NCBI GenBank assembly: GCA_028822845.1
Contig: JAPKCS010000004.1
Location: forward strand, 14,626 to 78,625
DNA: 64,000 nt
Direction: 5' to 3'
DNA from: Candidatus Poseidoniaceae archaeon
GTDB taxonomy: Archaea > Thermoplasmatota > Poseidoniia > Poseidoniales > Poseidoniaceae
Shown: in pieces, positions 26,345 to 45,383 of the stretch
Layout of the letters: each line of letters starts with the position of its first letter
Numbering within the stretch: position 1 is the first letter of the stretch
Made by a program: the position numbers and the translations under genes
Notes under the pieces: model-generated
Databases searched by the model: none
The model's input: the letters and a program-made list of their open reading frames with translations, nothing else
What the model was told of the DNA's origin: nothing

Positions 26345-26378
26345 TTAGACAATACGCAGTCTTGACACTTTAGCAAGT

Positions 26379-29300
26379 TCAGCCCGTTTGACGAGAATCA
26401 TAGCGAATTGGCGAGGAATCGCCCCTTATGCCGTCTTCCTCATCGTCATGGACTTCAAACCAGTCAACCAACCAATCTCCGTCGGTGTCCCAGTTTGTCG
26501 GGTCCGAACCTTCGGCGATGTGATCGTTGTCATGATCGAGAAGATACCAGCCAAATTCATGCTCACCGACAGCACGAACCGGTGCTGTAAAGGGCGAACC
26601 CGTGTAGTAAATTTCCCAAGAATCCGTCCAGTTTCCTGCCATGTGGACTTCGTCATCCCCTGCATCGAGTGAAAGGAAATTCGTGTCTTTGTCATCGACG
26701 ATGAAGGCAAAGCGGATATCGTTGTTGAACGACTGATCCATCTTGAGGTAATTTTCTGTGCTCGAACCGGTCTCATCCAACGAGAGCATAGCTGCTCTAA
26801 ATTGCCACCATTCCAAGACAACTTCTCCGTCATAGACCAAGCCGCTCAGTCGAACAGCATTTGGTGAGGCAAAATTTGTGTCGGTCACTGCATAGAATTC
26901 TTGGAAGTTGGTGTACGATTCATAGACACAACCTGCGCCGCTGCAATCCCAGTTTCCATCTTGATCGGGATCGAGGTTGGCATCCAGAGGATCTGCGGGG
27001 TTCATAGTGAACCACGTGAAGGTCAAATCCGGACGACCGAGCACACCATCGGCACCTTGTTGCGACAACGGGAGGCAGGAGTTGGTGGCTGTATCACAAG
27101 GACCACCGGTCGATGCGTCAATCCAGACCACCTGGATTTCCAAGTACGAACTGAAATTATCATTTGATTCGTTCCAGGCCTTTGAGTACTCATACCAATC
27201 AGGAATCATATCACCGTCGGTGTCGTTATCGCTCGGATTGATACCGTACTTGAACACTTCACGACCATCTGAAAGATTGTAATCGCGTTCGTGTGAGGTG
27301 ACTGCGCCATTGACGAGCTCGGTTGTGTAGGTGATGCTATCACCGTCTGAATCGTTCAAATCGGGCCGTGTCTGGTTGTCCCATTCCATCCAGTTGGTGA
27401 ACGGTAGATTCCCAATGCCCGGTTGAACAATGGAAGATGAAGGCGTGAAGATTCGGTCGGTCCATGTGCCCTGATCTGCAGGAATATCAAATGCTGTTCG
27501 ACCGTACCAGCCGTCTTGATCACCGTCATAGTTGACATCCCAAGGGTTGACTGGGTTCGATGCCCAATGGTTGATAGTGGAAGCATCTTCCATACCGTAG
27601 AGTGCATAACAGTACTCCCATCCGTCAGAGATACCATCGCCATCAGAATCGGTGCTGGTGGGATCTGCAACGCCAATCAACGTGCGGTTGAAGTTGTCAA
27701 AGTAAAATTCATTGATTTTCAACATACGGTCTGCGCTGTCTTGAGACTTTTCGATGAAGTCGTTGTAAAGGGCATCCATTGCTTGAGGCAACGTCATACC
27801 TGATTCTTCCATGTAAGCATTCATCGCATCTTCGCCGAAATCAATGATTCCAAGGGCGGTGGGGACGGAATTTCGTTGGTCGAACTTGCCCCAAGTTCGA
27901 GATTCCCATTCGCGAAGGTTGGAGAACACTTCTTCTTCAGAGATGGCTCCATCACCATTGCAATCGAAACTATCACCATCGGTATCGAGGTTCACATCGT
28001 TGTCAATCAATGGATTCATGCTCCATCGGTTTTGATCTAAATCCCAAACCGTGAACCAGTATTCGAAGCCGTCGTACATCCCGTCACCGTCTGTATCGGG
28101 GTTTGTTGGGTCGGTCATTCCCAACAGAATGGAAATGATCGCATTGGGTGGTTCACCCTGTTGCCAACCGTTGAAATCTGACAGCAAACGCTTGCCACGG
28201 GTCTCCTTCGTGATCAGGATGTTGAACACGCGCTGAGCCTTTTCTGTGGCTTGCTGTGCATCACCATCAATGTGAAGCAACGGTGCGTCATTCGGGTGCT
28301 CGATCCCGTTTTCGGGATTGGAAGCGGAAAGAGCAAATTCTTGGGCATCGATGAGACCATCGCCATCGCCGTCGAAATCACCATCACCAGCGACCAGAGG
28401 GTTGAGTGTCCACGTCTCGGCGGAAAGATTCCAAGCAGTGAAAAGGTGCTCAATACCGTCAAGCATGCCGTCACCATCGGTGTCGACGTTGTTTGGATCT
28501 GAGGTCCAACCACTGATGTTGATTTGATCCTGCGTCAAGAATGAACCAAAAGAAGAGCTCGTTGTTATGCTCGGCCACTGTTGAAGAGCGAAAGCGGAAC
28601 CAACGGTCGTAACGAACCACTGAGGAGAGGTTCGGTTCGCATCTGTCTCGCTGTATTCAGGAGCAATAGCATTGTACTCTTCCCAATTGGCCATTCCATC
28701 ATCATCAGCGTCTTGCCAGCGGTCTGCAGCGTCCAGTGGGTTGAGTGTCCAAGCATCGGCTAAGACATCCCATCGAGCAAACCAAATTTCCCATCCATCA
28801 GGCATACCGTCGCTGTCGCTGTCGGCATCGAAAGGATCTGCAGCACCAAGGCTGGTGCTGGTTTGAACGGCGGTGATTGCCCCTGATGCACGTGCCCCGA
28901 AGGTGGCTTCTGGTGCACCGTAATCGCTGATGTTACCAAACAAGTCAGTGCTGAAGCCATTCGGAAGTGGTTCACCAGTCATGGTCATGTTGGTGCTGAA
29001 TAAATCCGAACGAACATGGAATTCTAACCAATTCACGAAGGCTTCATTTTCTTCAAGCACACCATCATGGTTGATGTCATAGCCATCGCCATCGGGGTTT
29101 TGGAACAAGTCGGAGCCGTTGAGTGGGTTGACACCAATGCGCGAAGGGTCCCAATCGCAAGCACCGTCGGACTCCCACCCATCTGGAAGCGAGTCACCGT
29201 CGGAATCGATGTTGTTGGGGTCCGACATTGACCAAGACTCGGCTGATGCTGGAGTTTCGCCGTGTGATTCGAGCAAAAGACCCTCGAGGGCAGCGCCACG

Positions 29301-32132
29301 GACCAAGGACCATTGATACTCACATAGGTTCGGCAAACCATCACGGTCGGCGTCCCAGTTCGCATCGTCTGCTCGGTTTGGATCAAGCGACCAGTTGTTT
29401 CCACCGGTGAAGCTGGAGCCAACCCAACGCCGATGAATGATCTCCCAACCGTCTGGCATGCCATCCCCGTCTGAATCGAAATTCGTAGGGTCGGTACCGA
29501 CATCGCTTGAAGACAATCCAAGGTAGGTCGCATTGGCAGATTCGCTGGCTTCATCGTCACACACGTAGACGAGTTGAACAGTGTAATGGCACCAAAGGTT
29601 GGTCGATTCAAGGAAGAATCCGAAGTATTCCTCACCATCACCTAAACCATCGCCGTCGGTGTCACCCTCTCGAGGGTTGGTGGAATTGTAACCCTCTGGG
29701 GTGGTTTCGATGTAGCGGAACTCGTCAAGATTGGTCCAAAGGCGTTCCAAGAATCCATCACTGGCTTGGTCCAAGTCCAATCCATCGCCGTCCATATCCA
29801 ACAAAGCGTCCCAAGGATCGGTTGGATCCAAGCCATTGGCTACTTCCCATCCATCAGGCATTCCATCGTTATCAGAATCATTTGCTCCAGGGTTCATCAA
29901 TTCTAAATTGGCGTATTGACCTGGCGCTGAGCCTGCAAGGATGGTGATGTTGCCATCGAGGTTGACCCAATTGAGGGTGCTCAACTCTCCATAAATTGGT
30001 TCTTGCTTTTGCAAACCATAGACAGCTGTGTAATCACCAGAAATGGCCCAAAGGGATTTTTGAGAGCCAATCAAGAGTTCATCCCCGGTGGGGAAGATGG
30101 AGTAAATGTTGTTCAACTCACGGGTGAATTTGCCATCAAGTCCTGGATGTTCAAGCAAACCGCTGTGCGTGATGCTGTTGTCCAACACATCCATTCGGTG
30201 CAAACCTGAAGGTGTTCCAAACCAAAGGACTTGAGCGTTGGTTGGATTAGGTCCATCCAAAACAAGGGTTCGAACTTCTGCTGGGTTTTCCACCATGCCC
30301 AAAGAAAGGGAGCGCAATTCGTCAATGCTTGTTGGAATGGGAGTGGATTCAGTTGTGTAATGGAACCGCCATTCAGCAGTAAAGTCGTCACGAACTGTTG
30401 CCGTTTCTGCCATCACAAGGCCTCGGTCGGTACCGACGTAGAGCATCTTGTCCCCGCCGCCTGCTGCACCATGCGCCACTGATGTGACGCTGGCATTCGA
30501 TTCACTGAGGATTGAAGAAAGGGATGTTGAGATCGGGTAACTTTGAGCGATGGCTCCTGTCAGAGTGATTTCGACAATCACACCAGCACCTGAATCACCA
30601 AGCGCAAGCAGTTGTTGATTTTGGCCTTCGATGTCGAGCATTGCTAAAGCGTTGAGACCATCGCCCATGCTCCAGGACCATTCATCCAAATCGGCGAATG
30701 AACCATCTGCTTGGAGCGGTGCGACAGCCATACCGACGCTCGTGGCTAAAGCCAAAGCAAAGGCATCGTTTTCACTCTTGAGTAAAATTGCGTCTCGCAG
30801 TTCAACGCCTTGAGGCATCCACTGATCGCTGCTTGTTTCGTCTGCCATGTTCATGAATGTCAAACCGTAACGGGTGGTGACGTACACATTGCTAGCATCG
30901 GTTTCGATGTCACGTACATCGTAATGGAGCACACTCATCGACTCAGCATCAGCGGTGAATGAAAGCGGCATAATGGATGCTGTACCTTCTGAAGGACCGT
31001 AGTCCACCGACTTCAAACCAGCCCTCACCGAGTTTCCGTCGTCTTCATGGACCATGTATTCTTGCAACGTCGACAAAGCCTCACCAAGAGCAAGGGCCGT
31101 CAATGTTCGACTCACATCGGGGGAGATGCCGCCGTCTCGATTTGCATCCCAGCCATCGTTGTCATGATCGATGAGAGCGTTGGTCCGGTTCAAGGGGTCC
31201 AAACCAAAGTGAACTTCCCAGCCATCGGGAATACCATCACCGAAGGAAGGGAACAATCGGCGGATGGAAAATCCATCCCAGTGGTACCGGTCCGAATCAT
31301 CAAGCAGTGGATCAGTTCCAAGCCACAGGTCTTCATCCACGATGTTGGTTGCGTTGGTGGTGCACGCTGCGAGTAAGTTCTCGAAGGTAGCGTTTGAACC
31401 GGTTGGTATGAACGGCCAATTCAACAGAATCGAACCTTCGGGGAGGGACGCTGAGCACCACAAACCATCGAGTTCGTTGGTGTGATTCGAAGGTGCCCCT
31501 TGGCGGTATTCCTCCGGGGAAGTAAACCGCTCTGTAACCGAGAGAATTCCGTCTCTGTTGACGTCAAAACCGTCTTCATCAGGGTCGTCTGTCAAATCGC
31601 TTGCATTCAGGGGGTCAAACGCTGGACAGACATAGCGGAGTGTAAAGATGTCAAAGCCGCCGGTTCGATGGCACATGTAGGCTTCATAGCCGTCTGGCAT
31701 CCCATCACCATCGGTGTCTGAGACACGTGGATCGAGGTAACTTCGCTCGCCATTAGCATCAACGGTGCCGGTCAAACCACGGGGGAAACCTGAAGCAGTG
31801 CAATTTGCAGGATAAGGCCAACAATACTCTTCAGTCGCGTTGAGCCCGTCGAGATCGTTATCGACGAAAGCATCTGACGCATCTTCTTTGTTCATTCCGG
31901 GCATGAAGATATCACGCCCGTCGACTGAAGTCCAGTTCATCCAAGATTCAAACAAATTTTCATGGACGTCCGGGATTTTGTCCCCGTCGGTATCCGTGGA
32001 AGGAGGTTTCTCTCCCTCGGTCACCTTGGGGTGAATGCTTGAAACCGAAGAAACCGCAGGAAATTGCGACATAAAGAGAAGACTCGCAACGACTGCGAGT
32101 GTGGTGAGAAGAGTGGTTAAGCTTCGTCGCAT
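26379..32132 (-). CDS. Giant secreted calcium-binding protein: more than 20 thrombospondin type-3-like DxDxDG repeats flanking a beta-propeller-like core; no membrane anchor
   Basis: Recurrent DTDGDGMPDGYE, DSDNDGMPDGWE, DSDGDGMPDGWE, DSDSDGMPDGWE, DTDGDGMLDGIE, DTDGDGMYDGFE, DSDGDGISDGWE, DTDGDMIPDWYE and others. The middle part has Reg_prop-like blades (VLWFGTPSGLHRMD, MLYVGTDRGLVMAE). Start set at MRRSLTTLLTTLAVVASLL (32132), preceded by GGTGATACA; the ORF-track start is 32246. Confidence 0.8.
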   Translation of the reverse strand: MRRSLTTLLTTLAVVASLLFMSQFPAVSSVSSIHPKVTEGEKPPSTDTDGDKIPDVHENLFESWMNWTSVDGRDIFMPGMNKEDASDAFVDNDLDGLNATEEYCWPYPANCTASGFPRGLTGTVDANGERSYLDPRVSDTDGDGMPDGYEAYMCHRTGGFDIFTLRYVCPAFDPLNASDLTDDPDEDGFDVNRDGILSVTERFTSPEEYRQGAPSNHTNELDGLWCSASLPEGSILLNWPFIPTGSNATFENLLAACTTNATNIVDEDLWLGTDPLLDDSDRYHWDGFSIRRLFPSFGDGIPDGWEVHFGLDPLNRTNALIDHDNDGWDANRDGGISPDVSRTLTALALGEALSTLQEYMVHEDDGNSVRAGLKSVDYGPSEGTASIMPLSFTADAESMSVLHYDVRDIETDASNVYVTTRYGLTFMNMADETSSDQWMPQGVELRDAILLKSENDAFALALATSVGMAVAPLQADGSFADLDEWSWSMGDGLNALAMLDIEGQNQQLLALGDSGAGVIVEITLTGAIAQSYPISTSLSSILSESNASVTSVAHGAAGGGDKMLYVGTDRGLVMAETATVRDDFTAEWRFHYTTESTPIPTSIDELRSLSLGMVENPAEVRTLVLDGPNPTNAQVLWFGTPSGLHRMDVLDNSITHSGLLEHPGLDGKFTRELNNIYSIFPTGDELLIGSQKSLWAISGDYTAVYGLQKQEPIYGELSTLNWVNLDGNITILAGSAPGQYANLELMNPGANDSDNDGMPDGWEVANGLDPTDPWDALLDMDGDGLDLDQASDGFLERLWTNLDEFRYIETTPEGYNSTNPREGDTDGDGLGDGEEYFGFFLESTNLWCHYTVQLVYVCDDEASESANATYLGLSSSDVGTDPTNFDSDGDGMPDGWEIIHRRWVGSSFTGGNNWSLDPNRADDANWDADRDGLPNLCEYQWSLVRGAALEGLLLESHGETPASAESWSMSDPNNIDSDGDSLPDGWESDGACDWDPSRIGVNPLNGSDLFQNPDGDGYDINHDGVLEENEAFVNWLEFHVRSDLFSTNMTMTGEPLPNGFSTDLFGNISDYGAPEATFGARASGAITAVQTSTSLGAADPFDADSDSDGMPDGWEIWFARWDVLADAWTLNPLDAADRWQDADDDGMANWEEYNAIAPEYSETDANRTSPQWFVTTVGSAFALQQWPSITTSSSFGSFLTQDQINISGWTSDPNNVDTDGDGMLDGIEHLFTAWNLSAETWTLNPLVAGDGDFDGDGDGLIDAQEFALSASNPENGIEHPNDAPLLHIDGDAQQATEKAQRVFNILITKETRGKRLLSDFNGWQQGEPPNAIISILLGMTDPTNPDTDGDGMYDGFEYWFTVWDLDQNRWSMNPLIDNDVNLDTDGDSFDCNGDGAISEEEVFSNLREWESRTWGKFDQRNSVPTALGIIDFGEDAMNAYMEESGMTLPQAMDALYNDFIEKSQDSADRMLKINEFYFDNFNRTLIGVADPTSTDSDGDGISDGWEYCYALYGMEDASTINHWASNPVNPWDVNYDGDQDGWYGRTAFDIPADQGTWTDRIFTPSSSIVQPGIGNLPFTNWMEWDNQTRPDLNDSDGDSITYTTELVNGAVTSHERDYNLSDGREVFKYGINPSDNDTDGDMIPDWYEYSKAWNESNDNFSSYLEIQVVWIDASTGGPCDTATNSCLPLSQQGADGVLGRPDLTFTWFTMNPADPLDANLDPDQDGNWDCSGAGCVYESYTNFQEFYAVTDTNFASPNAVRLSGLVYDGEVVLEWWQFRAAMLSLDETGSSTENYLKMDQSFNNDIRFAFIVDDKDTNFLSLDAGDDEVHMAGNWTDSWEIYYTGSPFTAPVRAVGEHEFGWYLLDHDNDHIAEGSDPTNWDTDGDWLVDWFEVHDDEEDGIRGDSSPIRYDSRQTG

Positions 32133-32367
32133 TGTATCACCGGGGGCCAAGCCATAGGCTTCGCTAACCTTCAGCCCTAAATCGACACTTATGAGGATGA
32201 TGGAACGTTGTTCGGACATTTCCGTCTTCAGATGATAGAAATTCAAGCGCTAACCCATCCTTTCCCCTCAATTTGGCCGTGCAGAAAAAGTATCAAAGTA
32301 GGCATTCAACCGGCAGAAGGCAGCGCTTTGTTCAAAGCCCGAACGCGCTCCCGTCGGGTTGAGTCCC

Positions 32368-33195
32368 ATGGCAATGAGCATCACCCATCTTGGAACCGGT
32401 AGCCGCGGCAACGCGACCCTGCTGGAAACCAAAGGTGCGAAGGTGCTGATCGACCAGGGATTCAGCGGAGCACAACTGGAGAAGCGCTTGAAGCGCCTCG
32501 GCATCAGCCCTGAGGAAATCGATTGTATCTTCATTAGCCACCACCATGGTGACCATGGCGGTGGTGCAAAGATCGCTCAGAAACGATGGGGTTTGCAAAT
32601 CCTAGCCAACGAACGAACGGCAGAGGAACTGGGATTGATCCCCGAATTGACCTCCTACTTTTCAGCACTCGACATGGTCCGTGTTGGCGATGATTTAGCC
32701 GTTTTACCCGTCCCAGTCCCACACGCAGGGGCAGATAACGTAGCCTTCGTGGCGAGCCATGGCGGGGAACGAGCAGCCATCATCACAGACCTTGGCTCAT
32801 GGACTGAGGAACTGATCACGCATGTTCGTGGTTGCGAGCATATTGCCATCGAAGCAAATTATGATACGAACCGATTGATGAATGGCCCCTATCCCTACTC
32901 GCTCAAGGACCGAATCAGTGGCCGAGGGGGTCACTTGTCCAACGAGCAAACGGGTCAATTCTTGGCACAGGTGTGCACACCTGCGACCCGAAGCATTAGC
33001 CTGACCCACCTTTCAGAAAAGAACAACCGTCCACACCTCGCCGAATCAACTGTGCTGTACCACATCGACGAGGTGTTCTCTGGCGACATCACCATCTCGT
33101 TGCAAGATGGGCCGGATTACACACACTATGTTGGGGAAGACAAAGCAGATGAGGCGACTGAATCAGAAGCATCCCTCAAGCCTCGAACCCCCTGA
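32368..33195 (+). CDS. MBL-fold metallo-hydrolase, YycJ/WalJ-like
   Basis: ITHLGTGSRGNATLLE..VLIDQGFS, FISHHHGDHGGG (HxHxDH), VPHAGADN, TDLG, GHLSNEQ. The ORF-track start is TTG 32359; ATG 32368 or 32374 is more likely. Confidence 0.8.
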   Translation: MAMSITHLGTGSRGNATLLETKGAKVLIDQGFSGAQLEKRLKRLGISPEEIDCIFISHHHGDHGGGAKIAQKRWGLQILANERTAEELGLIPELTSYFSALDMVRVGDDLAVLPVPVPHAGADNVAFVASHGGERAAIITDLGSWTEELITHVRGCEHIAIEANYDTNRLMNGPYPYSLKDRISGRGGHLSNEQTGQFLAQVCTPATRSISLTHLSEKNNRPHLAESTVLYHIDEVFSGDITISLQDGPDYTHYVGEDKADEATESEASLKPRTP

Positions 33196-33235
33196 TTCTT
33201 GCACCCGGGACACCCTTCGAAAGGTGAAGGGCTAA

Positions 33236-34321
33236 ATGGTACCGAACATTGTGTGGCATGTGAACACCGAAGCCTGCTTCGTCTTGCGCCCGTCCCTGCG
33301 AAGGAATGAGCGTGCCGTGAGCGAAGTTTTGGGCGTCGTCATGCTTTTGGCGATGGTCATCACCATCATGGGTGGTGTCTGGATTTTTCTGACACCCTAC
33401 CTCTCTGATTTCGAAGACAACACCAATTGGAACAGTGCAGTTGGCATATCAGAACGATTCCAAGACCGAATCGATGTCGCTGGAGCATCCCCCGAAGGAA
33501 CAGGAATCCGTCACACTCTCGCCTTACAGGCAACCTACATCCGTCCAATTGACAAGGTGGAGACATGGACGATTGCTGCGGACATCGTTCCAAACGAAGT
33601 CGTAACCTTGCGCCATCACAACCTCACGACATTGGGTCTTGACGCCCAGAATGAGACGGCCCGTTCAGTCACCATTGAAACGCCAATGGGCATAGAATCA
33701 ATCTCGTTTTCAGCATCGCATGATGAGATCATGGTCCAGCACAACTCTTCGAGGGAACACTGGATGGTCATCACCGTGTATGATGAGGCGCAGACGCCAT
33801 TGCATCGGAGTTTGAGTTACGCCCTTTCAGGTATTCAAATCACCACATCGCTTGGCCAAGGAGAACACGAGCTGGCCCTGATGAACAACGCGAGGGTCGA
33901 ACACTTCCCCAACGAACCATGGCGAGTTACATCCTATCCCAACGTTGGCCTCGACCAACTGGTCGATGGAGAATACAGGCTCTCTATGCTCCTTTCGGAC
34001 GTCACCATCAACGGATCGCTTGGCACCGGGAACAACATCGGAATGAACATGCTTTCACTCGGACCAATCACCCTCTTCACCGGACAGGCTTACAACCTGA
34101 AGTTCACGGTCCTCAATGAGTTGAACGATGTGATCACTCCTCAATACCACGAGCATTGGTTGGATGAATACAACCTCAATCGAGCCTCTGGAACGCTGGA
34201 CACATTCGTCGGCTATGGGCCATTCGAACGTGCAAGTGGTGCAGATGGTTTCACAGTGGACACCCATGGTATCCCACTGTACCTCGAAGTGGATGTTCAA
34301 CGCGTGGAGGTCAGCCGATGA
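33236..34321 (+). CDS. Class III signal peptide (archaeal type IV pilin-like, DUF1628-type N-terminus) protein, 361 aa
   Basis: LRRNERAVSEVLGVVMLLAMVITIMGGVWIFL is a charged leader plus hydrophobic helix typical of archaeal prepilins. GGTGA SD lies 8 nt upstream of the ATG. Four N-x-S/T sequons. Confidence 0.7.
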   Translation: MVPNIVWHVNTEACFVLRPSLRRNERAVSEVLGVVMLLAMVITIMGGVWIFLTPYLSDFEDNTNWNSAVGISERFQDRIDVAGASPEGTGIRHTLALQATYIRPIDKVETWTIAADIVPNEVVTLRHHNLTTLGLDAQNETARSVTIETPMGIESISFSASHDEIMVQHNSSREHWMVITVYDEAQTPLHRSLSYALSGIQITTSLGQGEHELALMNNARVEHFPNEPWRVTSYPNVGLDQLVDGEYRLSMLLSDVTINGSLGTGNNIGMNMLSLGPITLFTGQAYNLKFTVLNELNDVITPQYHEHWLDEYNLNRASGTLDTFVGYGPFERASGADGFTVDTHGIPLYLEVDVQRVEVSR

Positions 34322-36549
34322 GATCGTCACTCCAGCGCAATGAAGAGGCAGTCTCCGCGGCTGTTGCGACCGTCCTCATGTTCGGTGGGGTGCTTTCGAT
34401 CATTGGCATGATGATGGTTTCGATGATTCCTGTCATTGAAGAACTTGAAGGATCTGTTGAACGTCATAACATGTCCGCACAAATGTCCTTACTCGCGCAT
34501 CAGACAGCTGCTCTGAGCGAAAAAGGGATGCCAGGTGATTCGACCTCAATTGAACTGATACCCGTCGATGGCAGCCTCGAATGGCAACACATGCAGAGTG
34601 GAATGTGGTATGCAGCAACATGGCATGAAGACATGTCCTTCCGCATGCGGGGCGCCCTGGATTTCGATGACGAACTGGAGGTCCGTCACCCCGAGTCAAT
34701 GAACACCGCCCTGTGCATGGACGATCTCCGACTCGGGCCCTCAAACGCGTTCCATTACAGTGTTCCTGAATGGGCTGACAAAGTGTCGTTCACCGTAGCA
34801 CCTGGACTTGCCATTCCGCTTGGCCCGGTCGATGTCGAGTTGGCCGTGAATGGAAGTGTGCTGCAAAACATCGAACTGATGGTTGATGGCTTGCAAGAAA
34901 TTGATGCACTCAACCTCGGTTTGTTCACATTGTCATCAAGTCATGAGTTGAACCTCTTTGTCGAACGAGGTGGAGGGGGCACCACGTTGGTTGCACCAAA
35001 CGATGCGAGTCCCATTGACGCAACCGGTCGGTCGTGGTCGGTCCCACTGCCTGCAGGCATCAGCAGATTGCACATGATCAGCCCTGGTGCGAATCAAATT
35101 AGCATCACCAATGAATCAACAACGGCTACCTATTACGCAATCCCGAGCGGTCAAAACCGAGTCGGAGCGGCGTTTAGCCATACCATTGAACGAGCCACAG
35201 CTGGTGTCGTCCACCTCACCGCAAGCGATGCATCGAGGCTTTTGCTCCAAACCTCAACCGCCAACGATCACGGGATCACGGCGATACCGAGCACCGATGG
35301 TCACTACCTTGGAAATGCTTTCATCGCACCTTCTTTGGAAGGAGAGATGGTCTTTACAAATCCCGGAATCAATTCCGTGACGGTGACTTGGCGTGGTGGA
35401 GGTGTGTCGGTCGCACCGAATCAGAGCCTCACATTTGACTGGCCGCCCGCCGGCATTAATGGGGCACCTATGATCGAAGCCGAAGGTGATGTGTTCATGA
35501 CCTGGCGAGCTGCAACAACCGGTCAAGGAGCAAACACGTCAGGCCTCTCCATTTATCCTGCTGACGACACGGGTGCAAGTTCAGGCCAACACCATACATT
35601 CCATACTGAAGATTCGACCTTAGCCCAATCCGTTCACTTGATGCGTGCCGGGCAAACGATCGAATGGAACCTCTCAGGGGCAACCGAAAACAATGGTACA
35701 ATGTACGGCGGTAACGGCCAAGAATCAGTGAACTTGACTGAAGGGACCTCAACCCTCATTGTCACCACCGGCCACACATTGCGAGCAACTCGAATCAGCG
35801 GAACCAACGGTCTTCTCCAGTTGCTACACGATGGACAGCAGCGATGCTTGAGCATCGGCGTCGAAGCAAGTGGCTGGATTGCCATGACACTGCCCTGGAC
35901 CTCCATGAGTGGTCGGGGCGAAGTCGACCTCAAGAACGCCTGGCGTGCTGGAACGCACCCATCAAGCTTGCAAATCACCCTCATCGGAGGACAAGGGCAA
36001 TCCACACATGCTACGATTGGAACTGTTTGGGGCTTCCACCTCTCCCGATTGTCATACGGATTTTCATCCTCTATTATGGGAATGGAAGTTGCTTACTCCG
36101 GTGGTGCTGTGGTGACCAACCATCCGGAATTCGAAGCCTTTGTTGTCGTTTCGCCCTCTGACCGTGGCGGCCCAGGACCACGGTTCGCCGCAACGGTCCC
36201 TTCCCTGCATCCAACTGCAACCAGCACCACTGGAGCAGGGGCTATGCACTTGGACATCGAACTTGTCGACCGTTCATCGCTTGCCTCAACCATCGCTTAC
36301 GAAATTCGCCGGGGCTGGTCTGAACCGTACGGTACATCCATTGCAACAGCTTCCGCTGACGGATTGGAATCAAGCGAAGACTGGACGATTTACCCTGGGA
36401 GGATTGACCTGCTGACCGATTATGTTGGTTGGGTACCAGATCCAAGTTATGGCACCAGTGAAGCGGTGTGGCATACCAATGGACAACCCATTCAATTCAC
36501 TTTACAAATGTCTTCATTGAATGTCCACATGACGGAGGCGATTTCGTGA
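34318..36549 (+). CDS. Class III signal peptide (archaeal type IV pilin-like) protein, 743 aa
   Basis: MRSSLQRNEEAVSAAVATVLMFGGVLSIIGMMMV is paralogous to the N-terminus of the preceding gene. ATGA start/stop overlap; GGAGGT SD 6 nt upstream. At least 8 sequons. Confidence 0.7.
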   Translation: MRSSLQRNEEAVSAAVATVLMFGGVLSIIGMMMVSMIPVIEELEGSVERHNMSAQMSLLAHQTAALSEKGMPGDSTSIELIPVDGSLEWQHMQSGMWYAATWHEDMSFRMRGALDFDDELEVRHPESMNTALCMDDLRLGPSNAFHYSVPEWADKVSFTVAPGLAIPLGPVDVELAVNGSVLQNIELMVDGLQEIDALNLGLFTLSSSHELNLFVERGGGGTTLVAPNDASPIDATGRSWSVPLPAGISRLHMISPGANQISITNESTTATYYAIPSGQNRVGAAFSHTIERATAGVVHLTASDASRLLLQTSTANDHGITAIPSTDGHYLGNAFIAPSLEGEMVFTNPGINSVTVTWRGGGVSVAPNQSLTFDWPPAGINGAPMIEAEGDVFMTWRAATTGQGANTSGLSIYPADDTGASSGQHHTFHTEDSTLAQSVHLMRAGQTIEWNLSGATENNGTMYGGNGQESVNLTEGTSTLIVTTGHTLRATRISGTNGLLQLLHDGQQRCLSIGVEASGWIAMTLPWTSMSGRGEVDLKNAWRAGTHPSSLQITLIGGQGQSTHATIGTVWGFHLSRLSYGFSSSIMGMEVAYSGGAVVTNHPEFEAFVVVSPSDRGGPGPRFAATVPSLHPTATSTTGAGAMHLDIELVDRSSLASTIAYEIRRGWSEPYGTSIATASADGLESSEDWTIYPGRIDLLTDYVGWVPDPSYGTSEAVWHTNGQPIQFTLQMSSLNVHMTEAIS

Positions 36550-37016
36550 ACCGTATGGCTCTCCGCAAAGACACCGGGGCTGCAGCCACCGAACTTGGCT
36601 ATATTTTCACGTTCCTGCTCGGTGTGCTTCTGTTAACCATGTTCAGTTTGTGGGCATGGGAGATCGAAAACGCCACCCGAGAACGATGGAATGAAAACGC
36701 AATTCAAGCGAACTTGGATGATTTGGCAGCTGCAGTTGAGCGGGCTGATGAAGCCAGCAGAATGGGGTCAATCGATTATGCGGAGCGTGTTGAATGGCGC
36801 CTGACTGAAGCCGATGAATCACGTATTACATTGGTCCTGACCGACACCAACATCGAACTCATTCATGACACAGGGAACCTTGACACAAACATCTCCATCT
36901 CAGGCACTGGTGCTGGAATACATGAAGGAACGCTCACATTGGCAGGCATCAACAGCATTTGGGTCGTCCACCACAATGGTGTAACCACAATCGAGTACGA
37001 TCGCCCTCAACATTGA
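36546..37016 (+). CDS. Small class III signal peptide-like (pilin-like) protein, ~153-156 aa
   Basis: (V)NRMALRKDTGAAATELGYIFTFLLGVLLLTMFSLW, with possible G|AAATE cleavage placing Glu at +5. The GTG start overlaps the upstream TGA (GTGA) and has GGAGG 7 nt upstream. Alternative ATG at 36555. Confidence 0.6.
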   Translation: MNRMALRKDTGAAATELGYIFTFLLGVLLLTMFSLWAWEIENATRERWNENAIQANLDDLAAAVERADEASRMGSIDYAERVEWRLTEADESRITLVLTDTNIELIHDTGNLDTNISISGTGAGIHEGTLTLAGINSIWVVHHNGVTTIEYDRPQH

Positions 37017-37021
37017 GGAAG

Positions 37022-39547
37022 TCAGCGACCCATCACTGCTGCGTGAACTTGGGCTTGTACTTCACGCATCCGTGATTTCGCACCAAGTTCTCTGAACACA
37101 GCAAGAGCACGTTGCAGGTATTCCATTCGACGAGGTTTATCTGTAGCCACGCCTCCTAGACGGGAGAGAAGTTCTCCAATTTGCATTCGAAGATCGTTGG
37201 CTTCTGCGATCACAAGGGCTTCACGGTAGTGTTCCATTGCCTCTTCGGCCTTTCCTGAGTCCTGGAGGACTTCACCAAGAAGAATGGTGACTTCGACGAG
37301 TGACAATAAGTCACCCGCTTCACTCATTGTTGCTAGCGCAGTCGAGTAGTGGTGTGAAGCAACATCAGCATCTCCAACCTTCGCATAGTATCGCCCAAGC
37401 ACTGCTTGAGCGCGAGCATGAAGCACTGGGTCCTCGCTGTCATCTGTGAGTTCGAAGGCTTCCAAAGCGTGGTCTCTGGCCCGGTCAATTTCACCAAGAT
37501 CTAAGAACGAACGGGCGAGGATCAATTGAGAACCAATCAAATCGGTTCCTTTTGATTCTTTGAGGATCGTTTCGACTTCACCGTAAGCTTCCAAGGCTTT
37601 GATTCGATCGTTCTTCCTTCGCAGAAGGTAACCCATGTTGTTGTATGAACGGGCTGCCCCTTTGGCGTCTTCTAATTCAATGAACTTTTCAAGCGCTTCT
37701 CGGTGCATGGACAAGGCCTTGTCAGCGTTGCCCTGCTTCAGGGAAATGTCGGCAAGGGCTGCAAGAATTTCTGCCTCGACCAGTGTCGCATTGGAAGAAG
37801 CAGCGAGCGACTGTGCTTCACTGAACACTTCTTCGGCTTCAGAAAATCGACCGAGAAGAACGAGAACTTCCCCGCGCAGTTGGCAGACTTTCACGTAGAC
37901 TTCCGCTTGCAGGTCAGAACCATCAACGCTCTCCATAAGTGGGAGTAATTCCATGTGTCCTTGTGAAACAAGCGTTCTGCCTTCAGAGGCGATGAGGTTG
38001 GATGCTGCTTCATGGCCATCGGAGCGAATAAGGTGGTGGATGTGCTCGATCACCGAATCTGGATTCGGGGTTTGTTTTGCATACCAAAGGCAGCATTTGG
38101 CGTGGAATGATTTTCGTGTGGTGCCTTCGAGGCTTCGGAGAAGAAATTCTCGAATGAGATCGTGAACGTCATAGGTTTCAGTATCAGCTTGGCGGGCAAG
38201 TCCTTGTTCAACCAGCGCATCAAGTTCATCGGTGTCAAGACCTTGTTCAGCCAGTGCTGCAAGTTCAACAGGTTCGCGATAGATTGCTAATGCGGACAAC
38301 ACCCGCTTTTGTTCTGCGGTTAATTTCGAGAAAATTTCAACCGTTACGTAATTCTCGAGTGTTTCGTGGAACGCACCAGCAGAAGCGCCCCGATTGATGA
38401 GTTCCAAGACCAATGGGTGGCCACGGGACAAGCCGTGAATGTGAAGCCACTGTTCATCAGCAAGGTCTTCAAAACTGCTGAGAAGTTGGCGGCCTGCATC
38501 AGAATCAAGACCGTCCAAAGGAAGGACTAAACTTGCGATTCTACCTTCTGCGTCCTTGGTTGGGACAACCGGCTTAAACGACCTTGAAAAGATAACAAGA
38601 GCGATTTCCTCTTCGCTGCCAAGGAGGGCGAGGGACATGGCTTGGAAGGTTTGGTGCAACGTTGCGTCAGCAACTTTGTGAAAGTCATCGATGACAATCA
38701 GCGAAGGCGTACCTTCGAGAGCATCCACGAGCAAGCGTGCAGCGTCAGCAGGCTGGGGGACTGGGGTTGCTGCGAGGTAATCGGCAAAGGTCGAGTCACC
38801 AATGTTGGCAAGCCAGTCCGCAACAGACTCAAAGAACGAACGAGAACCTTCCCAATCCTGACAGCGGTGGTAGAGCAAATTACGACGATGCATGAACCGT
38901 TCGATCAGTTTGGAAGCGACTGTCGTTTTTCCGATGCCAGCAATCCCTGGAATGAGAAGCGTGGTGGCACGGGCTTCGATCAGGCTCGCCATGTTGTCGA
39001 GTTCCTTTTCACGGCCGTAAAAGTGACGAAGACGTGGGAGGTCACCAAGGGAGGTCACCAACTGCTTTTCCACATGCTTCGAGAGATCACGTTCGATTAA
39101 GTCTGGTGAAAGTGTTCTTGCATCGAGCACACAGTTGTCATCCATGTAACGAATAATGTCCACAGGTCGCATGGAAAAAGGCAACTTCTCGTTGACGTCC
39201 CCAAGCGTTGAATGTACGGCCAGACCGTCTTCGAGGACCGCTCGAAGTGGGAAGGAGCGGAGGCGGACCCAGGTGTCCTCAGCCAAATTCATTCCCGGGT
39301 CGGTCAAGAAGTAGGCCTTCCTTTTTCGAGAAACCCCTTTGACGTGAGCTTGACGTTCAATGAGCAAGCCCTGATCCTTGAGCCCTGCAATCGCTCGCGG
39401 AACATTGGATCGAGCAATGGCAACAGCGTTAGCAATGCCCATTTGCGAGAGAGCGAAAGGCACTTCGACACTGTTTTTGAAATCAGTGTAGTCCAACAGA
39501 TGAAGGAGGATTCTCTCTTGGACTCCGGGCTTCGGTTGTGTTGCCAT
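37022..39547 (-). CDS. wHTH-STAND/AAA NTPase-TPR protein (putative signal-transducing transcription regulator)
   Basis: N-terminal winged-helix (ILLHLLDY..MGIANAVAIARSNVPRAIAGLKDQGLLIER). Walker A PGIAGIGKTT, Walker B LIVIDDFH, and at least 7 TPR-like repeats in the C-terminal ~350 aa. ATG 39547 is preceded by GGTGGTGAG; the ORF-track TTG start is 39577. Confidence 0.75.
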   Translation of the reverse strand: MATQPKPGVQERILLHLLDYTDFKNSVEVPFALSQMGIANAVAIARSNVPRAIAGLKDQGLLIERQAHVKGVSRKRKAYFLTDPGMNLAEDTWVRLRSFPLRAVLEDGLAVHSTLGDVNEKLPFSMRPVDIIRYMDDNCVLDARTLSPDLIERDLSKHVEKQLVTSLGDLPRLRHFYGREKELDNMASLIEARATTLLIPGIAGIGKTTVASKLIERFMHRRNLLYHRCQDWEGSRSFFESVADWLANIGDSTFADYLAATPVPQPADAARLLVDALEGTPSLIVIDDFHKVADATLHQTFQAMSLALLGSEEEIALVIFSRSFKPVVPTKDAEGRIASLVLPLDGLDSDAGRQLLSSFEDLADEQWLHIHGLSRGHPLVLELINRGASAGAFHETLENYVTVEIFSKLTAEQKRVLSALAIYREPVELAALAEQGLDTDELDALVEQGLARQADTETYDVHDLIREFLLRSLEGTTRKSFHAKCCLWYAKQTPNPDSVIEHIHHLIRSDGHEAASNLIASEGRTLVSQGHMELLPLMESVDGSDLQAEVYVKVCQLRGEVLVLLGRFSEAEEVFSEAQSLAASSNATLVEAEILAALADISLKQGNADKALSMHREALEKFIELEDAKGAARSYNNMGYLLRRKNDRIKALEAYGEVETILKESKGTDLIGSQLILARSFLDLGEIDRARDHALEAFELTDDSEDPVLHARAQAVLGRYYAKVGDADVASHHYSTALATMSEAGDLLSLVEVTILLGEVLQDSGKAEEAMEHYREALVIAEANDLRMQIGELLSRLGGVATDKPRRMEYLQRALAVFRELGAKSRMREVQAQVHAAVMGR

Positions 39548-39606
39548 AATCTCACCACCCACGCTTATCCTCTTCAACTCTTGCGGCTCGGTGAGCGTTC
39601 ATTGAG

Positions 39607-42600
39607 TCATTGTTCAGGGGAGAAATTTGGATCTGGCACCCAGCTGTTGCTGGTTTCATCCCAGAGCCAACCCGGGTGGGTTGATGCTGCTGGAGCGGCT
39701 GCTACGGCTGGTGTTAGAGGGGCCGCTACGGGCTCTGGCGTTGCTTTGCCCCATGCGTAGACATCCTCGACAGGTGCGGGCCCTTCAGTATCCATTGCTC
39801 CTTCTTCATCAAAGTCTTCGTATTCAACTTGGAAGAAGAATGCACCGGCACCAATCAGAACGATTAGACCAACAATAGCACCAACGATCAACAAGAGGTT
39901 TCCGCTTCCTGCATCGGCTGAACCGGACTTCAATTGGAATAGAGAATCTGCGGTTGATCCAGGAGCGGAATAGACTTGACCATCCATTTCAAAGATAATA
40001 GCAGCCTTTTCCACACCTGAGAGTTGATTGCTGGCGATGTCCATTGACCAGGTTCCATCGGCAGCAACACGGGTTGAATTGAGGCGGATTCCCTTTGCGT
40101 CATCGAAACGAGCAGCAACGATGCTGTTTGGTAGACCTTGACCAGAGAAGGTTGCAGGGTCATTGGCGGTCACAGAACCTGTGTCAACACGCTCGGCGCT
40201 GAAAGCTACGGAGACCACAATGATGTTGACCTTGTATGAATACGCTACAGAGTCGTAAGAATCTCGTGCTTCAAACATCAGGCCAACAAGGGACCACTCG
40301 GCAATCACTGAAGTTGGTTGAACCCATGGAGGGTTGTACGTTGCGATACCTTGTGCGCTAATGGAGACGTAATCAGCATAGAAATCGTCGTCCAAATTGG
40401 TTGCATCATTGAAGATGTCAAACAAGAGATCGTTTTCTCCATCGCCGGTTCCATCGGGGTCTGAGAAGTATTCAGTCAAGTCAATGACTGCACCTTGACC
40501 GCATCGATCAATGGCGTTTGACTTGGCATCGCAGAAGATGGTGATTGTCCCAGTCCAGCCTTCTTGGTCAAAGATTGGAGCAATGTTGTTTGCATCAGTT
40601 GGATTATCAATGGTGACGCGGATCCTCTCCTCCAGTGAATAATCTTCTCCGTCATAGGCTCGAATGAGCAGTTCATACTGTTGGTCGTGAATCAGTTTTG
40701 AGGTATCCCATGTGGTGGACCAAGCGCCGTTTGATGCGAAGGTTGTCACAGGGTTTGGTCCGTTGTTTAGCATCAAACCACTGGCCAAATCTTGGATTTG
40801 AATTTCGACACGTGTCACTTGTCCGTCATTGTCTCTGGCCACGCCTTGAATGGTCTGGCTTTCAGAGGCACGAATAACGTCGCTGTTGACTGGTTCGCTC
40901 AGTTGAACGAACGGCAATGCATTGTCGTTCATGATGGTAAGTGTTCGAGTTTCAGCGTTGCATGTTCCAACAATATCCCTGCAGAAATCGCTGTCAGCAG
41001 CCCAGATACTGAAGGTGTAGGTGCCGCTTGCAAGTTCTTCAAATTGCCAATCATATGACCAGGCTGTCGATCCTTCGATGGAGAAGTGGGATGTGTAATC
41101 ATTCGGTCCACTGATGTCAAACCAAATGTTTTGGATGTCGCTCCCCCAAGTTCCTGTGTAAGGGTCGCTTGCAGAACCTGTGAAGGTCACTTTGACGTTA
41201 TCATGCGAAGTGCCATCGTTTGGTGTTTCAACGAGGATCGTTGGAGCAACGAGGTTGAGTTTGTACTTGCGCACTTCGACCGGTGAGTAATCCAGACCGT
41301 CGTAGGAGCGAACACGGAATGTGACGTCGCCTTCACCTTCAGGGTGGGCCGAAAGGTCCCAGTCAAAGGACCAGTCTTTGAACGGATGGTTCGCAAGGGT
41401 AATCTCGCCATCAGCACCAGAGGTATCCACTGCGGAGTACCAGTCATTTGATCCTGGTGGTTGGATTTCAACACGCTTAACCAAACCAAATTGCTTCTCA
41501 TAAGCTACGATGTCCAATGGATATGGACCCGAAACTCCGTCCCATGCGGTTCCAGTCAGGCTGACCGTGGTTGCGAAAGAAGCTCCATCACCTTGCGTCA
41601 CATCGACGCTTGGTTTTAGGTTGTCAAGATTGATGACGTCATCGATGGCACCGCTTAGAACAAAGTTGAACGCTTTTGTTCCCTTTCCGAATTTAGAAGC
41701 ACTCACGCTGTAGAATGGAAGCTCGCGGCCACCGGTGCAATCGGTGTCGGCATCGTCAACAAATGTATCGCCATCGTTGTCATACCCGTCAGAACAGGTG
41801 TTCTCATCCATGAATTCTGTAATGCCAGGGGCAATGGTGACTTCGACGTTGGATTCACCAACAAGGTGATTCCAGTTTCGATCGAGGTAGAAGTCACTCG
41901 GGAGAGAAATCTCGGGAGTGAAACCGAAAGCGTCGGTTTGGAGGGTGTAAAGTGGGAGACCAGTTGCATCGCTGATGACCACAGTCGCGTCATAGACGTT
42001 GCTGTTCTTGGCTTTCACCTGGTAGCGAACCAATTCCCCTTCTCGGACTTGAGTACCCCATGCGGAGTTTTGGTTTTGGACATGGACCTTACTGGCGTCG
42101 AAGTTCTGTAAATCTGCGAAAGAGAACACTGTCGAATTGGCCACAACCTCAAGGGCCATAGGCATGAACTTGGGAGGTAAAGCAGCTGTTGATGGGACTT
42201 GCAAGCACTCATCTTGAACGTACGGGCACTCAGCACCGTTCCACTGAAGGGACACGGGGTAGAGTTCGCCTCCGACCGGATCTGGTATGTATTCAGATTG
42301 AACGGTCACTCGAGATTCAGTGATGTTGTACACTTGGGAGGCATTGGTGTAACTGTTGCCTGAGAAGTAAGCAATGGAACCATACTTGTTACCGTAGTTG
42401 TCGTCATACATCGAAATATTGGCTGCAAAGCCACCGACTGCAACACTGTTACGTTGTGCGTTGACGATGCCACCTTTGATTCGGAAACCATCGCCTGCAT
42501 TGTTGGTGATGGTGTTGTCGTAAAGGGTGGCAGAGGACATGAACACGTGAATGGCTGGACAAGGAAAGTCTCCGCCATAGAGTTGAGAGTTGCAGGTTCC

Positions 42601-43941: not shown

Positions 43942-43978
43942 AACGGGCACCACTGTTCTAACCGTATTCTCCAGAGAG

Positions 43979-43984
43979 ATATAA
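43979..43984 (-). promoter_or_regulatory. Putative TATA box (TTATAT on the minus strand) for the beta-helix surface-protein gene
   Basis: Lies ~40 nt upstream of the ATG at 43941. This would give a short leader containing the GGTG SD. Confidence 0.3.
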
Positions 43985-44009
43985 CACTGCGCCTCTGTTG
44001 CCACCTTGA

Positions 44010-44153: not shown

Positions 44154-45383
44154 TCAGCAGACAGGAGCCGTTCGAGCAACTTCATCAATCCAATCCATAG
44201 CCTGTAGGTGACCATAGCCTGACCGATTATCATGGATTCCAGCATCATGCAACGGGGTGACTGAATTCATCAATGCCATCTTAATCGCGTCAATGCACGC
44301 ACCGTTCCCGCCAGATTGAGGTTTGTATTCCGGGTGTGCTTCCAACAGAAGGGCGAGGGCAGCTGTTACGAAGACAGTGGCATCGGAAGTTCCGCTGCTT
44401 GAGTACCATTCATTTCCGCTTCCTGTGCTAATGATTCCAACGCCTGGGGCGACAACTTCTGGCTTTTGGTGTGGATTCTGTCGTTGAGAACCATCCTCAA
44501 GAACTTGGGAACCTAAAGAAGAATTCCTCCAAACCAATGTGCCAAAGTCGGCAGCACCAACAGTGATCACCCGTGGAATGTTTGCTGGAACTGACACTAA
44601 GCCGTCGTCATCTGGCCCACCATCATTGCCTGCTGCTGCAACAACGAAGATACCTGCATCAACGGCACGTCGGGTAGCCGATGCAGTAGCACCTTCCCTT
44701 TCTGCATCGAGGTTCTGTTCACCGCCGAGGGAAAGCGAGATGATATCCGCTTGAAAGGTATCCTGACACCAACGAATGGAATCGGCCACGACGGATTCTT
44801 CGCCGCTGTTTTCACCGTTCGCATCCTCTCCTAAAGCAGCAACAACGCCAAGGCTGATCCCTGGTGCTGCACCAATTTGATGTTCTTGCGCCACGAGGAT
44901 GCCTGCCATGAGTGTACCATGGGCAATGAATCCATAATCGATTGGAGTGCTGGACCCTTTTCGCATATCTTTGAATGTGACTTCAACAGACGACAGCGCA
45001 TCGTGGGTGAGATCAATTCCAGTGTCCACCATGCACACTCGGACCCCCTCACCAGTCAAGCCTCGAGCGGCTGCTTCGTCCAATTGCGCTTGTTCATTGG
45101 CCCATTTCGAATCAGGTAGGCTGAGTTCAATCCACAGGATACCCGAGTTCCAAACCGACAGCAGTACAACCACCAGAATGGAAAAAATCAGACCATTGGT
45201 CAGCAGTCTTTGACGCTGGCGTCTGGCTTGAATCGGAGCAGCTTCCAGTGGAGCCCAGCCCGTCACCTCCGCTCGCCAGGCGCTTTGAAACCCAACCGCA
45301 GCAGGATCAATTGCTGAAACAATACGAGGATCATCCGGTTCTGGTAGAAATTCAACGTAGTCGAGTTCATCCATAGCTTTCAC
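44154..45383 (-). CDS. Membrane-anchored subtilisin-like serine protease (peptidase S8)
   Basis: Catalytic triad contexts VCMVDTGIDLTHDAL (Asp), HGTLMAGIL (His) and SGTSDATVFVTAALALL (Ser). N-terminal TM LIFSILVVVLLSVW (type II anchor). Confidence 0.85.
   Translation of the reverse strand: MKAMDELDYVEFLPEPDDPRIVSAIDPAAVGFQSAWRAEVTGWAPLEAAPIQARRQRQRLLTNGLIFSILVVVLLSVWNSGILWIELSLPDSKWANEQAQLDEAAARGLTGEGVRVCMVDTGIDLTHDALSSVEVTFKDMRKGSSTPIDYGFIAHGTLMAGILVAQEHQIGAAPGISLGVVAALGEDANGENSGEESVVADSIRWCQDTFQADIISLSLGGEQNLDAEREGATASATRRAVDAGIFVVAAAGNDGGPDDDGLVSVPANIPRVITVGAADFGTLVWRNSSLGSQVLEDGSQRQNPHQKPEVVAPGVGIISTGSGNEWYSSSGTSDATVFVTAALALLLEAHPEYKPQSGGNGACIDAIKMALMNSVTPLHDAGIHDNRSGYGHLQAMDWIDEVARTAPVC

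Follow-up and report, generated by a model that had tools for sequence, protein, structure and literature searches.

The window analysed here is a stretch of 64,000 nucleotides from a Candidatus Poseidoniaceae archaeon (order Poseidoniales; contig JAPKCS010000004.1, positions 14,626 to 78,625). It carries three consecutive open reading frames on the plus strand, which we call P1, P2 and P3, whose products have pilin-like N-termini and ectodomains without known relatives. An earlier reading of the letters alone (the sequence-only reading) had singled them out as an orphan operon whose products carry class III signal peptides. P1 (33236..34321) encodes a pilin-like protein of 361 residues and P2 (34318..36549) one of 743 residues, for which we collected 257 and 501 homologues, respectively; each of the three proteins has homologues in the hundreds. 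P3 (36546..37016) encodes a protein of pilin size, with 156 residues counted from its true start, the GTG at 36546. This start is supported by the cluster representative P0241, which is 100% identical and begins MNRMALRKD.

The start and stop codons of neighbouring genes overlap, as ATGA at 34318-34321 between P1 and P2 and as GTGA at 36546-36549 between P2 and P3. In addition, a Shine-Dalgarno-like motif can be read before each gene on the plus strand: GGTGA at 33223..33227, 8 nt 5' of the P1 ATG, GGAGGT at 34306..34311, inside the P1 coding region, and GGAGG at 36534..36538, inside that of P2. The three consecutive frames, their translational coupling and their ribosome-binding signals are therefore as the sequence-only reading had described them. 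Among related loci, an in-frame NTGA overlap was found at 106 of the 127 P1/P2 junctions and at 104 of 140 P2/P3 junctions, which fits a stoichiometric complex of the three proteins.

Hydropathy profiles placed a hydrophobic segment near the N-terminus of all three proteins, preceded by a leader. In P1 the leader, a putative class III signal peptide, spans residues 1-27 (33236..33316, plus strand); it is variable and basic and ends at the junction NERA/VSEVLGVVMLLAMV, beyond which follow a long N-terminal helix and a β-rich ectodomain with 4 N-glycosylation sequons. The leader of P2 is 11 residues long and its junction reads NEEA/VSAAVATVLMFGGV; the protein carries 8 sequons. P3 has a leader of ~12 residues followed by [A/G]-A-A-T-E-L-G-Y-I-F-T-F-L-L-G-V-L-L-L, and its predicted cleavage position is ambiguous within the AAAT run. 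The leaders, which had been characterised as short and charged, are indeed charged, but with 27 residues that of P1 is not short.

Junction statistics were taken over 142 loci, comprising 139 species-level genomes and 3 metagenome contigs. Position -1 of P1 was alanine in 91 sequences and glycine in 29 (A/G in 120/120), and positions +1 to +3 read VSE in all 120. The glycine at +6 and the valine at +7 were invariant as well; position -2 and everything upstream of it varied. In P2, position -1 was alanine in 124 sequences and glycine in 1 (A/G in 125/125), followed by V-S-A-A at +1 to +4, and the P3 motif [A/G]-A-A-T-E-L-G-Y was invariant from its second alanine on (AATELGY). The residue at +3 is an invariant glutamate in P1 (residue 30, window position ~33323) and P3 (residue 16, ~36591), and an alanine in P2 (residue 14, ~34357). 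Across the homologues of the three proteins, a sharp boundary separates the variable leader, rich in R, K, D and E, from the near-invariant hydrophobic segment. Since a conserved small residue precedes the hydrophobic segment, the arrangement is that of class III (prepilin) signal peptides and not of Sec signals, and the alignments indicate that the leader/helix junction is under strong selection. Based on this conservation, the processing site of P1 is predicted to lie between A27 and V28.

Profile searches gave weak, specific matches to pilin N-terminal domains. Pilin_N (PF07790, cut-off 25.2 bits) aligned with P1 at 19.8 bits (E 1.5e-3) and with its homologue P0128 at 22.4 bits (E 2.3e-4), and returned no match for P2 or P3. 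DUF7289 (PF23960, cut-off 27) scored 23.4 bits with P1, 21.9 bits with P2 and 24.7-25.9 bits with homologues, at E values ranging from 8e-6 to 1.5e-4 and with only positions 1 to 50-84 of the 238-position profile aligned; the precomputed PF23960 flags on many P1 and P2 homologues are of the same weak and partial kind. DUF7266 (PF23928, cut-off 27.6 bits) matched 38 of the 116 members of the P3 family, with a best E value of 0.0047. One of these members, P0315, scored 16.4 bits, yet was aligned over profile positions 3-123 of 145. Furthermore, the NCBIfam model TIGR02537 (arch_flag_Nterm) matched this N-terminal region at E 0.011 over 19 residues. In a profile search of the PDB, the best sequence matches to P1 were the archaeal pilins Natrinema PilA2 (8gi2) and 9myg, and over the junction ERAVSeVLGV of P1 aligned with ERAVSPVIGV of these solved pilins.

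The N-termini of prepilin (DUF1628) type proposed by the sequence-only reading are thus supported by the conserved junction, by the Pilin_N, DUF7289 and DUF7266 matches and by the solved archaeal pilins. It had also taken the leaders of P1 and P2 for paralogues. The two proteins are alike over their ~44 N-terminal residues (hhalign, E 2e-4); paralogy past the N-terminus was rejected, as hhalign aligned these 44 columns only and the ectodomains are unrelated. Profile alignments of P3 with P1 and with P2 were not significant. A literature search retrieved no paper mentioning DUF7289, and a tblastn search of P1 against a plasmid collection, made to find haloarchaeal context for DUF7289 and DUF7266, returned noise only.

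Modelled alone by AlphaFold2 from the family alignment, P1 reached a mean pLDDT (predicted local distance difference test) of 85.8. A disordered leader (residues 1-21) precedes a single helix of 63 residues (22-84) and a β-rich head (90-360), which also contains two short helices, so that the model follows the 'lollipop' plan of pilins. The P2 model had a mean pLDDT of 65.5 and was confident for the multi-domain, all-β ectodomain (residues ~105-575). No part of P2 is more conserved than its C-terminal region (~575-743, window positions 36040-36549), in which the motifs GTNHPE, RRGWxGPYG and DYxGWV are invariant down to 30% overall identity, yet AlphaFold2 left this region unmodelled (pLDDT <35). 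Perhaps a partner is needed for it to fold.

Foldseek searches of the P1 and P2 models against the PDB yielded only generic similarity to immunoglobulin (Ig)/FN3, jelly-roll, β-sandwich and carbohydrate-binding-module-like folds, with TM scores of ~0.1-0.2; the β-sandwich domains of P2 weakly resembled carbohydrate- and collagen-binding modules. The P1 model also matched chain AC of PDB entry 9u4r ('initial complex in filament assembly', 2026), at an E value of 9e-3 and a match probability of 0.2, which is uninterpretably weak. Relatives of the ectodomains were found neither by Pfam, NCBIfam and PADLOC (P1 to P3) nor by PDB sequence profiles and Foldseek (P1 and P2), in agreement with the earlier description of large globular parts without a recognisable motif. 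Even so, the ectodomains are unusually conserved among the homologues, with a mean column identity of 63-78%. Because the scores stay below the curated thresholds and the ectodomains have no known relatives, we do not assign P1, P2 or P3 to the Pilin_N, DUF7289 or DUF7266 families.

Within Marine Group II (MGII), the Poseidoniaceae correspond to MGIIa and the Thalassarchaeaceae to MGIIb. Species-representative genomes were scanned twice, which gave 63 and 76 loci; the second scan used an alignment of divergent members, and P0372 as a single query found nothing. The triad was intact in the 139 species-level genomes and in the 3 metagenome contigs. All 139 loci belong to Poseidoniales, save a few evidently mis-binned 'bacterial' metagenome-assembled genomes (MAGs). 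Contigs L044, L055, L129 and L135, labelled Salipiger bermudensis, Rhodobiaceae, Deltaproteobacteria (a single amplified genome) and Yoonia, carry the Poseidoniales gene block and appear mis-binned or contaminating. Among the loci are that of the closed MG-II chromosome CM001443 and those of many Thalassarchaeaceae. In total, the triad is present with an intact junction motif in ~60 MGIIb species genomes, Thalassarchaeum included; in the Thalassarchaeum locus L098 the genes are intact and overlapping and encode 344, 767 and 157 residues. P1, P2 and P3 co-occur in every locus that covers them, at identities down to 27% for P1 and 29% for P2. The P2 family has a narrow range: among 1.84 billion representatives, a profile search picked up 133 matches, ~13 of them full-length clusters at 50% identity (715-768 residues) and the rest fragments. 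By this search, the family is confined to Poseidoniales.

The triad lies between a regulatory and an enzymatic gene, which are flanked in turn by genes for surface proteins. An MBL-fold (metallo-β-lactamase) metallo-hydrolase gene (32359..33195, plus strand; likely start ATG 32369; Pfam Lactamase_B/Lactamase_B_2, E 2e-14), whose product is cytoplasmic, ends 40 nt 5' of P1, and the P1-P2-P3 transcription unit may begin with it. On the other side, the minus strand encodes a convergent regulator of the STAND type (signal transduction ATPases with numerous domains; 37022..39577), with an N-terminal winged helix-turn-helix, an AAA_16 NTPase and an array of tetratricopeptide repeats (TPR); it is MalT/AfsR-like by Pfam and NCBIfam. 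Its stop codon and that of P3 (37014-37016) are 5 nt apart. In relatives the two stops overlap by 4 nt in 61 loci and are separated by 0-2 nt in 43 more (104 of 136 loci). These arrangements leave no space for terminators, so that transcriptional interference or antisense coupling between P3 and the STAND gene is possible.

Two giant surface proteins with Sec signals are encoded on the minus strand at 20921..32246, divergent from the MBL gene; one has 1807 residues and a C-terminal anchor, the other 1955 residues and TSP3 repeats. Beyond the STAND gene, and on the same strand, follow a giant β-helix/Big_7 surface protein with a C-terminal anchor (39607..44004) and an S8 subtilase (44154..45383), both recognised by Pfam and NCBIfam, and an STT3/AglB fusion protein of 3186 residues (45443..55003; Pfam STT3 at residues 419-812, NCBIfam archaeo_STT3 at 166 bits). 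The fusion protein joins a polytopic N-terminus, which is the STT3/AglB oligosaccharyltransferase, to an extracellular part of >2000 residues with CarboxypepD_reg and choice-of-anchor T domains, and in every Poseidoniales locus its gene adjoins that of the S8 subtilase. The window is rich in large proteins that combine a Sec signal with a C-terminal transmembrane anchor (20921-32246, 39607-44004, 57233-59002 and 60464-62956). They carry TSP3 repeats, β-helix, Big_7, CARDB and PKD domains, none has a class III-type N-terminus, and they are probably the cell's glycoprotein coat. The window, which is archaeal, also encodes a CDP-archaeol synthase, a DUF5591/ArcTGT protein and an S13/S15-type ribosomal protein; by the names of homologues it belongs to Poseidoniaceae.

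The order found by tblastn in every locus that reaches far enough is giant protein, giant TSP3 protein, MBL, P1, P2, P3, convergent STAND, giant β-helix protein, S8 protease and giant STT3/AglB fusion. The neighbourhood reported by the sequence-only reading, with the MBL gene upstream, the STAND gene converging at 5 nt and AglB nearby, is correct, and the triad keeps its MBL and STAND neighbours in relatives. In three long-read contigs (L001-L003; pilon-polished, from ENA, up to 1.87 Mb), gene calling broke P2, STAND and the giant genes into 2-4 pieces; since the pieces follow the order and register of the intact genes at other loci, frameshift errors are a likelier cause than pseudogenes. We also considered a defence island on account of the STAND and MBL genes. 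This was rejected: PADLOC returned generic TPR, NTPase and MBL fragments only, and a block that belongs to the core genome, with one gene order in all 139 genomes, does not fit a variable island.

Pfam scans of ~29 open reading frames, together with hydropathy profiles of the unannotated ones, revealed no PilB/FlaI ATPase, PilC/FlaJ platform protein or A24 peptidase in the 64 kb, as had been noted before. Machinery hidden among the unannotated frames was rejected, as their hydropathy shows a Sec signal and a C-terminal anchor and is not polytopic. The window contains no small major pilin and no further pilin-like N-terminus, the Pfam scans of its frames detected no fla genes, and the 20-kb flanks of the 142 loci harbour neither a PilB/FlaI ATPase nor a PilC/FlaJ platform protein.

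This orphan status had been regarded as unusual; however, pilin sets located away from their machinery are ordinary in archaea. Pilin genes lie outside type IV pilus (T4P) operons in most archaea, and the ATPase/TadC modules of euryarchaea draw on pilin sets in trans, including the all-β minor pilin arCOG02911 of 250-550 residues (Makarova et al. 2016). In the literature, Thermoplasmatales pilin genes are placed ~500 kb from their machinery, and 42 pilins are predicted for Haloferax volcanii. An archaellum operon without chemotaxis genes has been described in all MGIIa (Rinke et al. 2019, Tully 2019). Each of four MGIIa populations has two FlaI, two FlaJ, one FlaK and one FlaH, and all four proteins are at zero in three of the four MGIIb populations (Orellana et al. 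2019, Table S4). Similarly, flaK was recorded in 83 of 92 MGIIa genomes as against 26 of 158 (16%) MGIIb genomes (Tully 2019, Supplementary Data 10). By these published tables, a prepilin peptidase is encoded in the family to which the window belongs, so that the lack of one, which would have spoken against the sequence-only reading, does not apply to this family. Moreover, the presence of two FlaI and two FlaJ next to a single FlaH and a single FlaK implies that MGIIa possess a second ATPase/platform pair for a type IV filament, which is non-archaellar and has no assigned pilins.

Whereas orphan pilins are ordinary, the presence of the triad in MGIIb, where the machinery is mostly unannotated, is the surprising point. 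One of three things must be true: MGIIb have divergent machinery that has gone unrecognised, the core function of the triad is independent of filament assembly and the junction is kept for another reason, or the MAG-based tables are badly incomplete. The last is unlikely because the absence amounts to 84%.

We compared the triad with known systems of pilin-like proteins. With Pilin_N (PF07790/DUF1628) pilins, such as Haloferax volcanii PilA1-6 and Natrinema PilA2, it shares a charged leader, a small residue at -1, the motif V-S-x-V-[IL]-G-V and a hydrophobic helix, as well as the helix and β-head of the P1 model and the location of the genes apart from pilB/pilC. It differs from them in scoring below the Pfam cut-off and in having glutamate for proline at +3. 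P1-P3 are also 2 to 5 times larger than PilA-type pilins, their ectodomains are unrelated and unusually conserved, and they are three different proteins in a fixed operon, unlike tandem paralogues. The haloarchaeal DUF7289 is touched by P1 and P2, and DUF7266 by P3, in each case below threshold; the likeness to DUF7289 is limited to the first 50-85 of its 238 profile positions. Several distinct class III proteins are also required together in the Epd minor pilins (EpdA/B/C) of Methanococcus maripaludis, as described in the literature. These, like stand-alone pilin loci, include members encoded away from ATPase and platform genes, but the Epd families are unrelated to P1-P3, and Epd relies on a peptidase of its own and a locus of 11 genes. 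An Epd-like locus is not known from Poseidoniales.

Another parallel is offered by the euryarchaeal minor-pilin sets formed by arCOG02911 and its partners, which likewise combine several different class III proteins, with large, all-β, Ig-like members among them. The evolution of such sets is independent of that of the ATPase/TadC module, and in some cases they are linked with S-layer-like proteins (Makarova et al. 2016). In contrast to them, P2 exceeds the described size range with its 743 residues, and the triad is kept in lineages without an annotated ATPase/TadC module. What distinguishes it from the known sets are the unusually large subunits, the unusually conserved ectodomains, the order-wide occurrence in single copy and the apparent retention without canonical machinery.

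The reading that we tentatively favour, with somewhat less than even confidence, is that P1-P3 form a stoichiometric, hetero-oligomeric surface complex of the minor-pilin or 'cap' type, whose core role is independent of the archaellum. Their large size, single copy and conserved ectodomains, together with the absence of a small pilin nearby, point to minor rather than major pilins. A single, translationally coupled operon would supply the three proteins at a constant ratio, and each would insert into the membrane with its charged leader on the cytoplasmic side. In MGIIa, the leader would be removed at the invariant A/G by a FlaK/PibD-type peptidase encoded elsewhere. The three conserved N-terminal helices could bundle into a small hetero-oligomer, comparable to minor-pilin or cap assemblies and not to a major filament subunit.

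For the order of the subunits, we draw on an analogy with bacteria. The minor pseudopilin tip complex GspI-GspJ-GspK of type II secretion and the T4P minor-pilin priming complexes, on which Korotkov and Hol and Cisneros and colleagues have reportedly worked, consist of pilin-like subunits, in the former three of graded size that are encoded together. The bacterial tip complex self-assembles in the membrane, and its largest subunit, GspK, lacks the conserved N-terminal Glu5. By analogy, P2 might be placed distally, with P1 and P3 beneath it, since P2 is both the largest subunit and the only one without the glutamate at +3. The analogy is meant in terms of how the parts work: three pilin-like subunits graded in size, of which the largest has lost the conserved glutamate. 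The archaeal proteins differ in that the glutamate is at +3 instead of +5, the ectodomains are far larger and no machinery is adjacent. Homology to GspI, GspJ or GspK was found neither by PDB sequence searches nor, for P1 and P2, by Foldseek, so that the resemblance is organisational only.

Assembled in this manner, the complex would expose ~1,100 residues of β-rich ectodomain at the cell surface, probably N-glycosylated in view of the 14 sequons in the three proteins and the adjacent AglB. One of the two FlaI/FlaJ pairs may serve to lift or extend it in MGIIa. Its core role would be surface adhesion or the organisation of the glycoprotein envelope. The retention of the triad with an intact junction in MGIIb suggests that this role does not require the archaellum, nor perhaps any filament, and persistence in non-archaellated lineages argues for adhesion or an envelope function rather than motility.

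Several observations weigh against the minor-pilin or cap-type complex. All Pfam and NCBIfam matches lie below the curated cut-offs, and those of P1 and P2 span only the N-terminal 30-85 residues. In P2, the N-terminal helices (9-68) and the conserved C-terminal 170 residues were modelled by AlphaFold2 with low confidence, and the complex and its subunit order are drawn from analogy. The presence and absence of FlaK, FlaI and FlaJ are taken from published KEGG-based tables on MAGs and not from the genomes analysed here. If MGIIb are truly without a class III peptidase, the invariant A/G at -1 needs another explanation. Finally, it is collinearity that links the triad to the giant glycoproteins and AglB, and in MGIIa this collinearity runs on into the unrelated genes purD and carS (AglB-purD-carS); the control covers MGIIa, as the purD scan returned no MGIIb loci. 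Because housekeeping genes are also collinear in MGIIa, the synteny of the block is weak evidence of a link to the giant proteins, and its value as proof of functional linkage is reduced.

The N-terminal and structural evidence fits equally a set of true minor pilins that prime or cap a T4P-like fibre, whose major pilin would be encoded elsewhere and whose machinery would be the second FlaI/FlaJ in MGIIa and a divergent, unannotated one in MGIIb. The ATPase/platform pair that lacks pilins in MGIIa and the conserved multi-pilin sets of euryarchaeal T4P both speak for such a fibre, and the invariant A/G at -1 in MGIIb argues for a peptidase that is still acting there. However, the triad is intact in a group in which FlaI, FlaJ and FlaK are at zero in three of four populations and flaK is found in 16% of 158 genomes. 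The locus offers no candidate for the major pilin either, and the conservation of the ectodomains is far above what exposed pilins usually show. We therefore hold a fibre of this kind to be possible but rather unlikely. A further, improbable account is that the proteins are plain, uncleaved type II signal-anchor ectoproteins, whose likeness to pilins is convergent and stems from the composition of a transmembrane helix. It would agree with family matches that are all sub-threshold and mostly limited to the hydrophobic segment, with the reported lack of FlaK in most MGIIb and with generic β-sandwich ectodomains that gave no pilin match in Foldseek. It leaves unexplained why an invariant small residue occurs exactly at the leader/helix boundary of three unrelated proteins, and why VSE, VSA and ATE are invariant throughout the order next to variable leaders. 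The residue-for-residue alignment of the P1 junction with ERAVSPVIGV of the solved Natrinema pilin, and the DUF7266 match of the P3 family, which runs through the globular part, also speak against it.

Pilin-like proteins may serve as tethers, as exemplified by ArlF/ArlG (FlaF/FlaG), which combine an N-terminal pilin-like helix with a β-sandwich ectodomain and have been proposed to bind the S-layer or, in Thermoplasmatales, a disordered glycoprotein layer. P1-P3 could accordingly be short, pseudo-periplasmic stators tying the membrane, or a machine within it, to the giant-protein coat. Some P1 homologues are labelled 'FlaG/FlaF family' or 'flagellin-like' in the JGI (Joint Genome Institute) annotation, and throughout the order the locus lies amid giant surface glycoproteins, the S8 protease and AglB. 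On the other hand, no Pfam match to Arch_flagellin, FlaF or FlaG was obtained even at E<=1, the triad stands outside the archaellum operon and occurs in MGIIb, where the archaellum is absent, the collinearity is not specific to this block, and 361 and 743 residues far exceed the sizes of ArlF and ArlG, which makes a tether of the ArlF/ArlG kind quite improbable. A 2026 preprint reports that binding proteins that bear class III signal peptides are widespread in archaea, and the β-sandwiches of P2 are weakly similar to carbohydrate- and collagen-binding modules. Both would suit a bindosome-like device, in which such proteins capture substrates at the surface as the sugar-binding proteins of Sulfolobus do. 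Yet neither Pfam nor, for P1 and P2, Foldseek revealed a substrate-binding-protein domain or fold, the locus has no ABC transporter, and no Bas-like ATPase or membrane protein lies nearby; we regard this device as highly improbable.

Going beyond the minor-pilin or cap-type complex, the triad could be a pilin-derived envelope scaffold, in which a heterotrimer of class III-type helices, universal in Poseidoniales and freed from filament machinery, anchors or organises the giant N-glycosylated coat proteins encoded around it beside a giant AglB and an S8 protease. We consider such a scaffold unlikely. In MGIIb, a peptidase as yet unrecognised would process its junction, or something else would recognise it.

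No other archaea of the surface ocean are as abundant as the Poseidoniales, which are uncultured and in which roughly half of the genes lack an assigned function. Our analysis identifies three of their unknowns as a universally conserved, pilin-like surface module within a cell-surface block that also holds the giant glycoproteins, the S8 protease, the AglB protein and the STAND regulator. Orphan pilin genes as such will not surprise a specialist; the noteworthy part is their retention in MGIIb and their embedding among giant glycoproteins and AglB. If the module is processed and assembled, it would be a candidate substrate for the second FlaI/FlaJ pair of MGIIa, which bears on the debated role of the 'flagellar' genes of Poseidoniales in adhesion or motility. 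If instead it works without machinery, as its persistence in MGIIb suggests, pilin-type N-termini would be reusable as envelope anchors outside filament systems. Should the envelope scaffold prove true, the triad would represent a novel functional class among derivatives of the type IV filament superfamily, in the most abundant archaea of the surface ocean.

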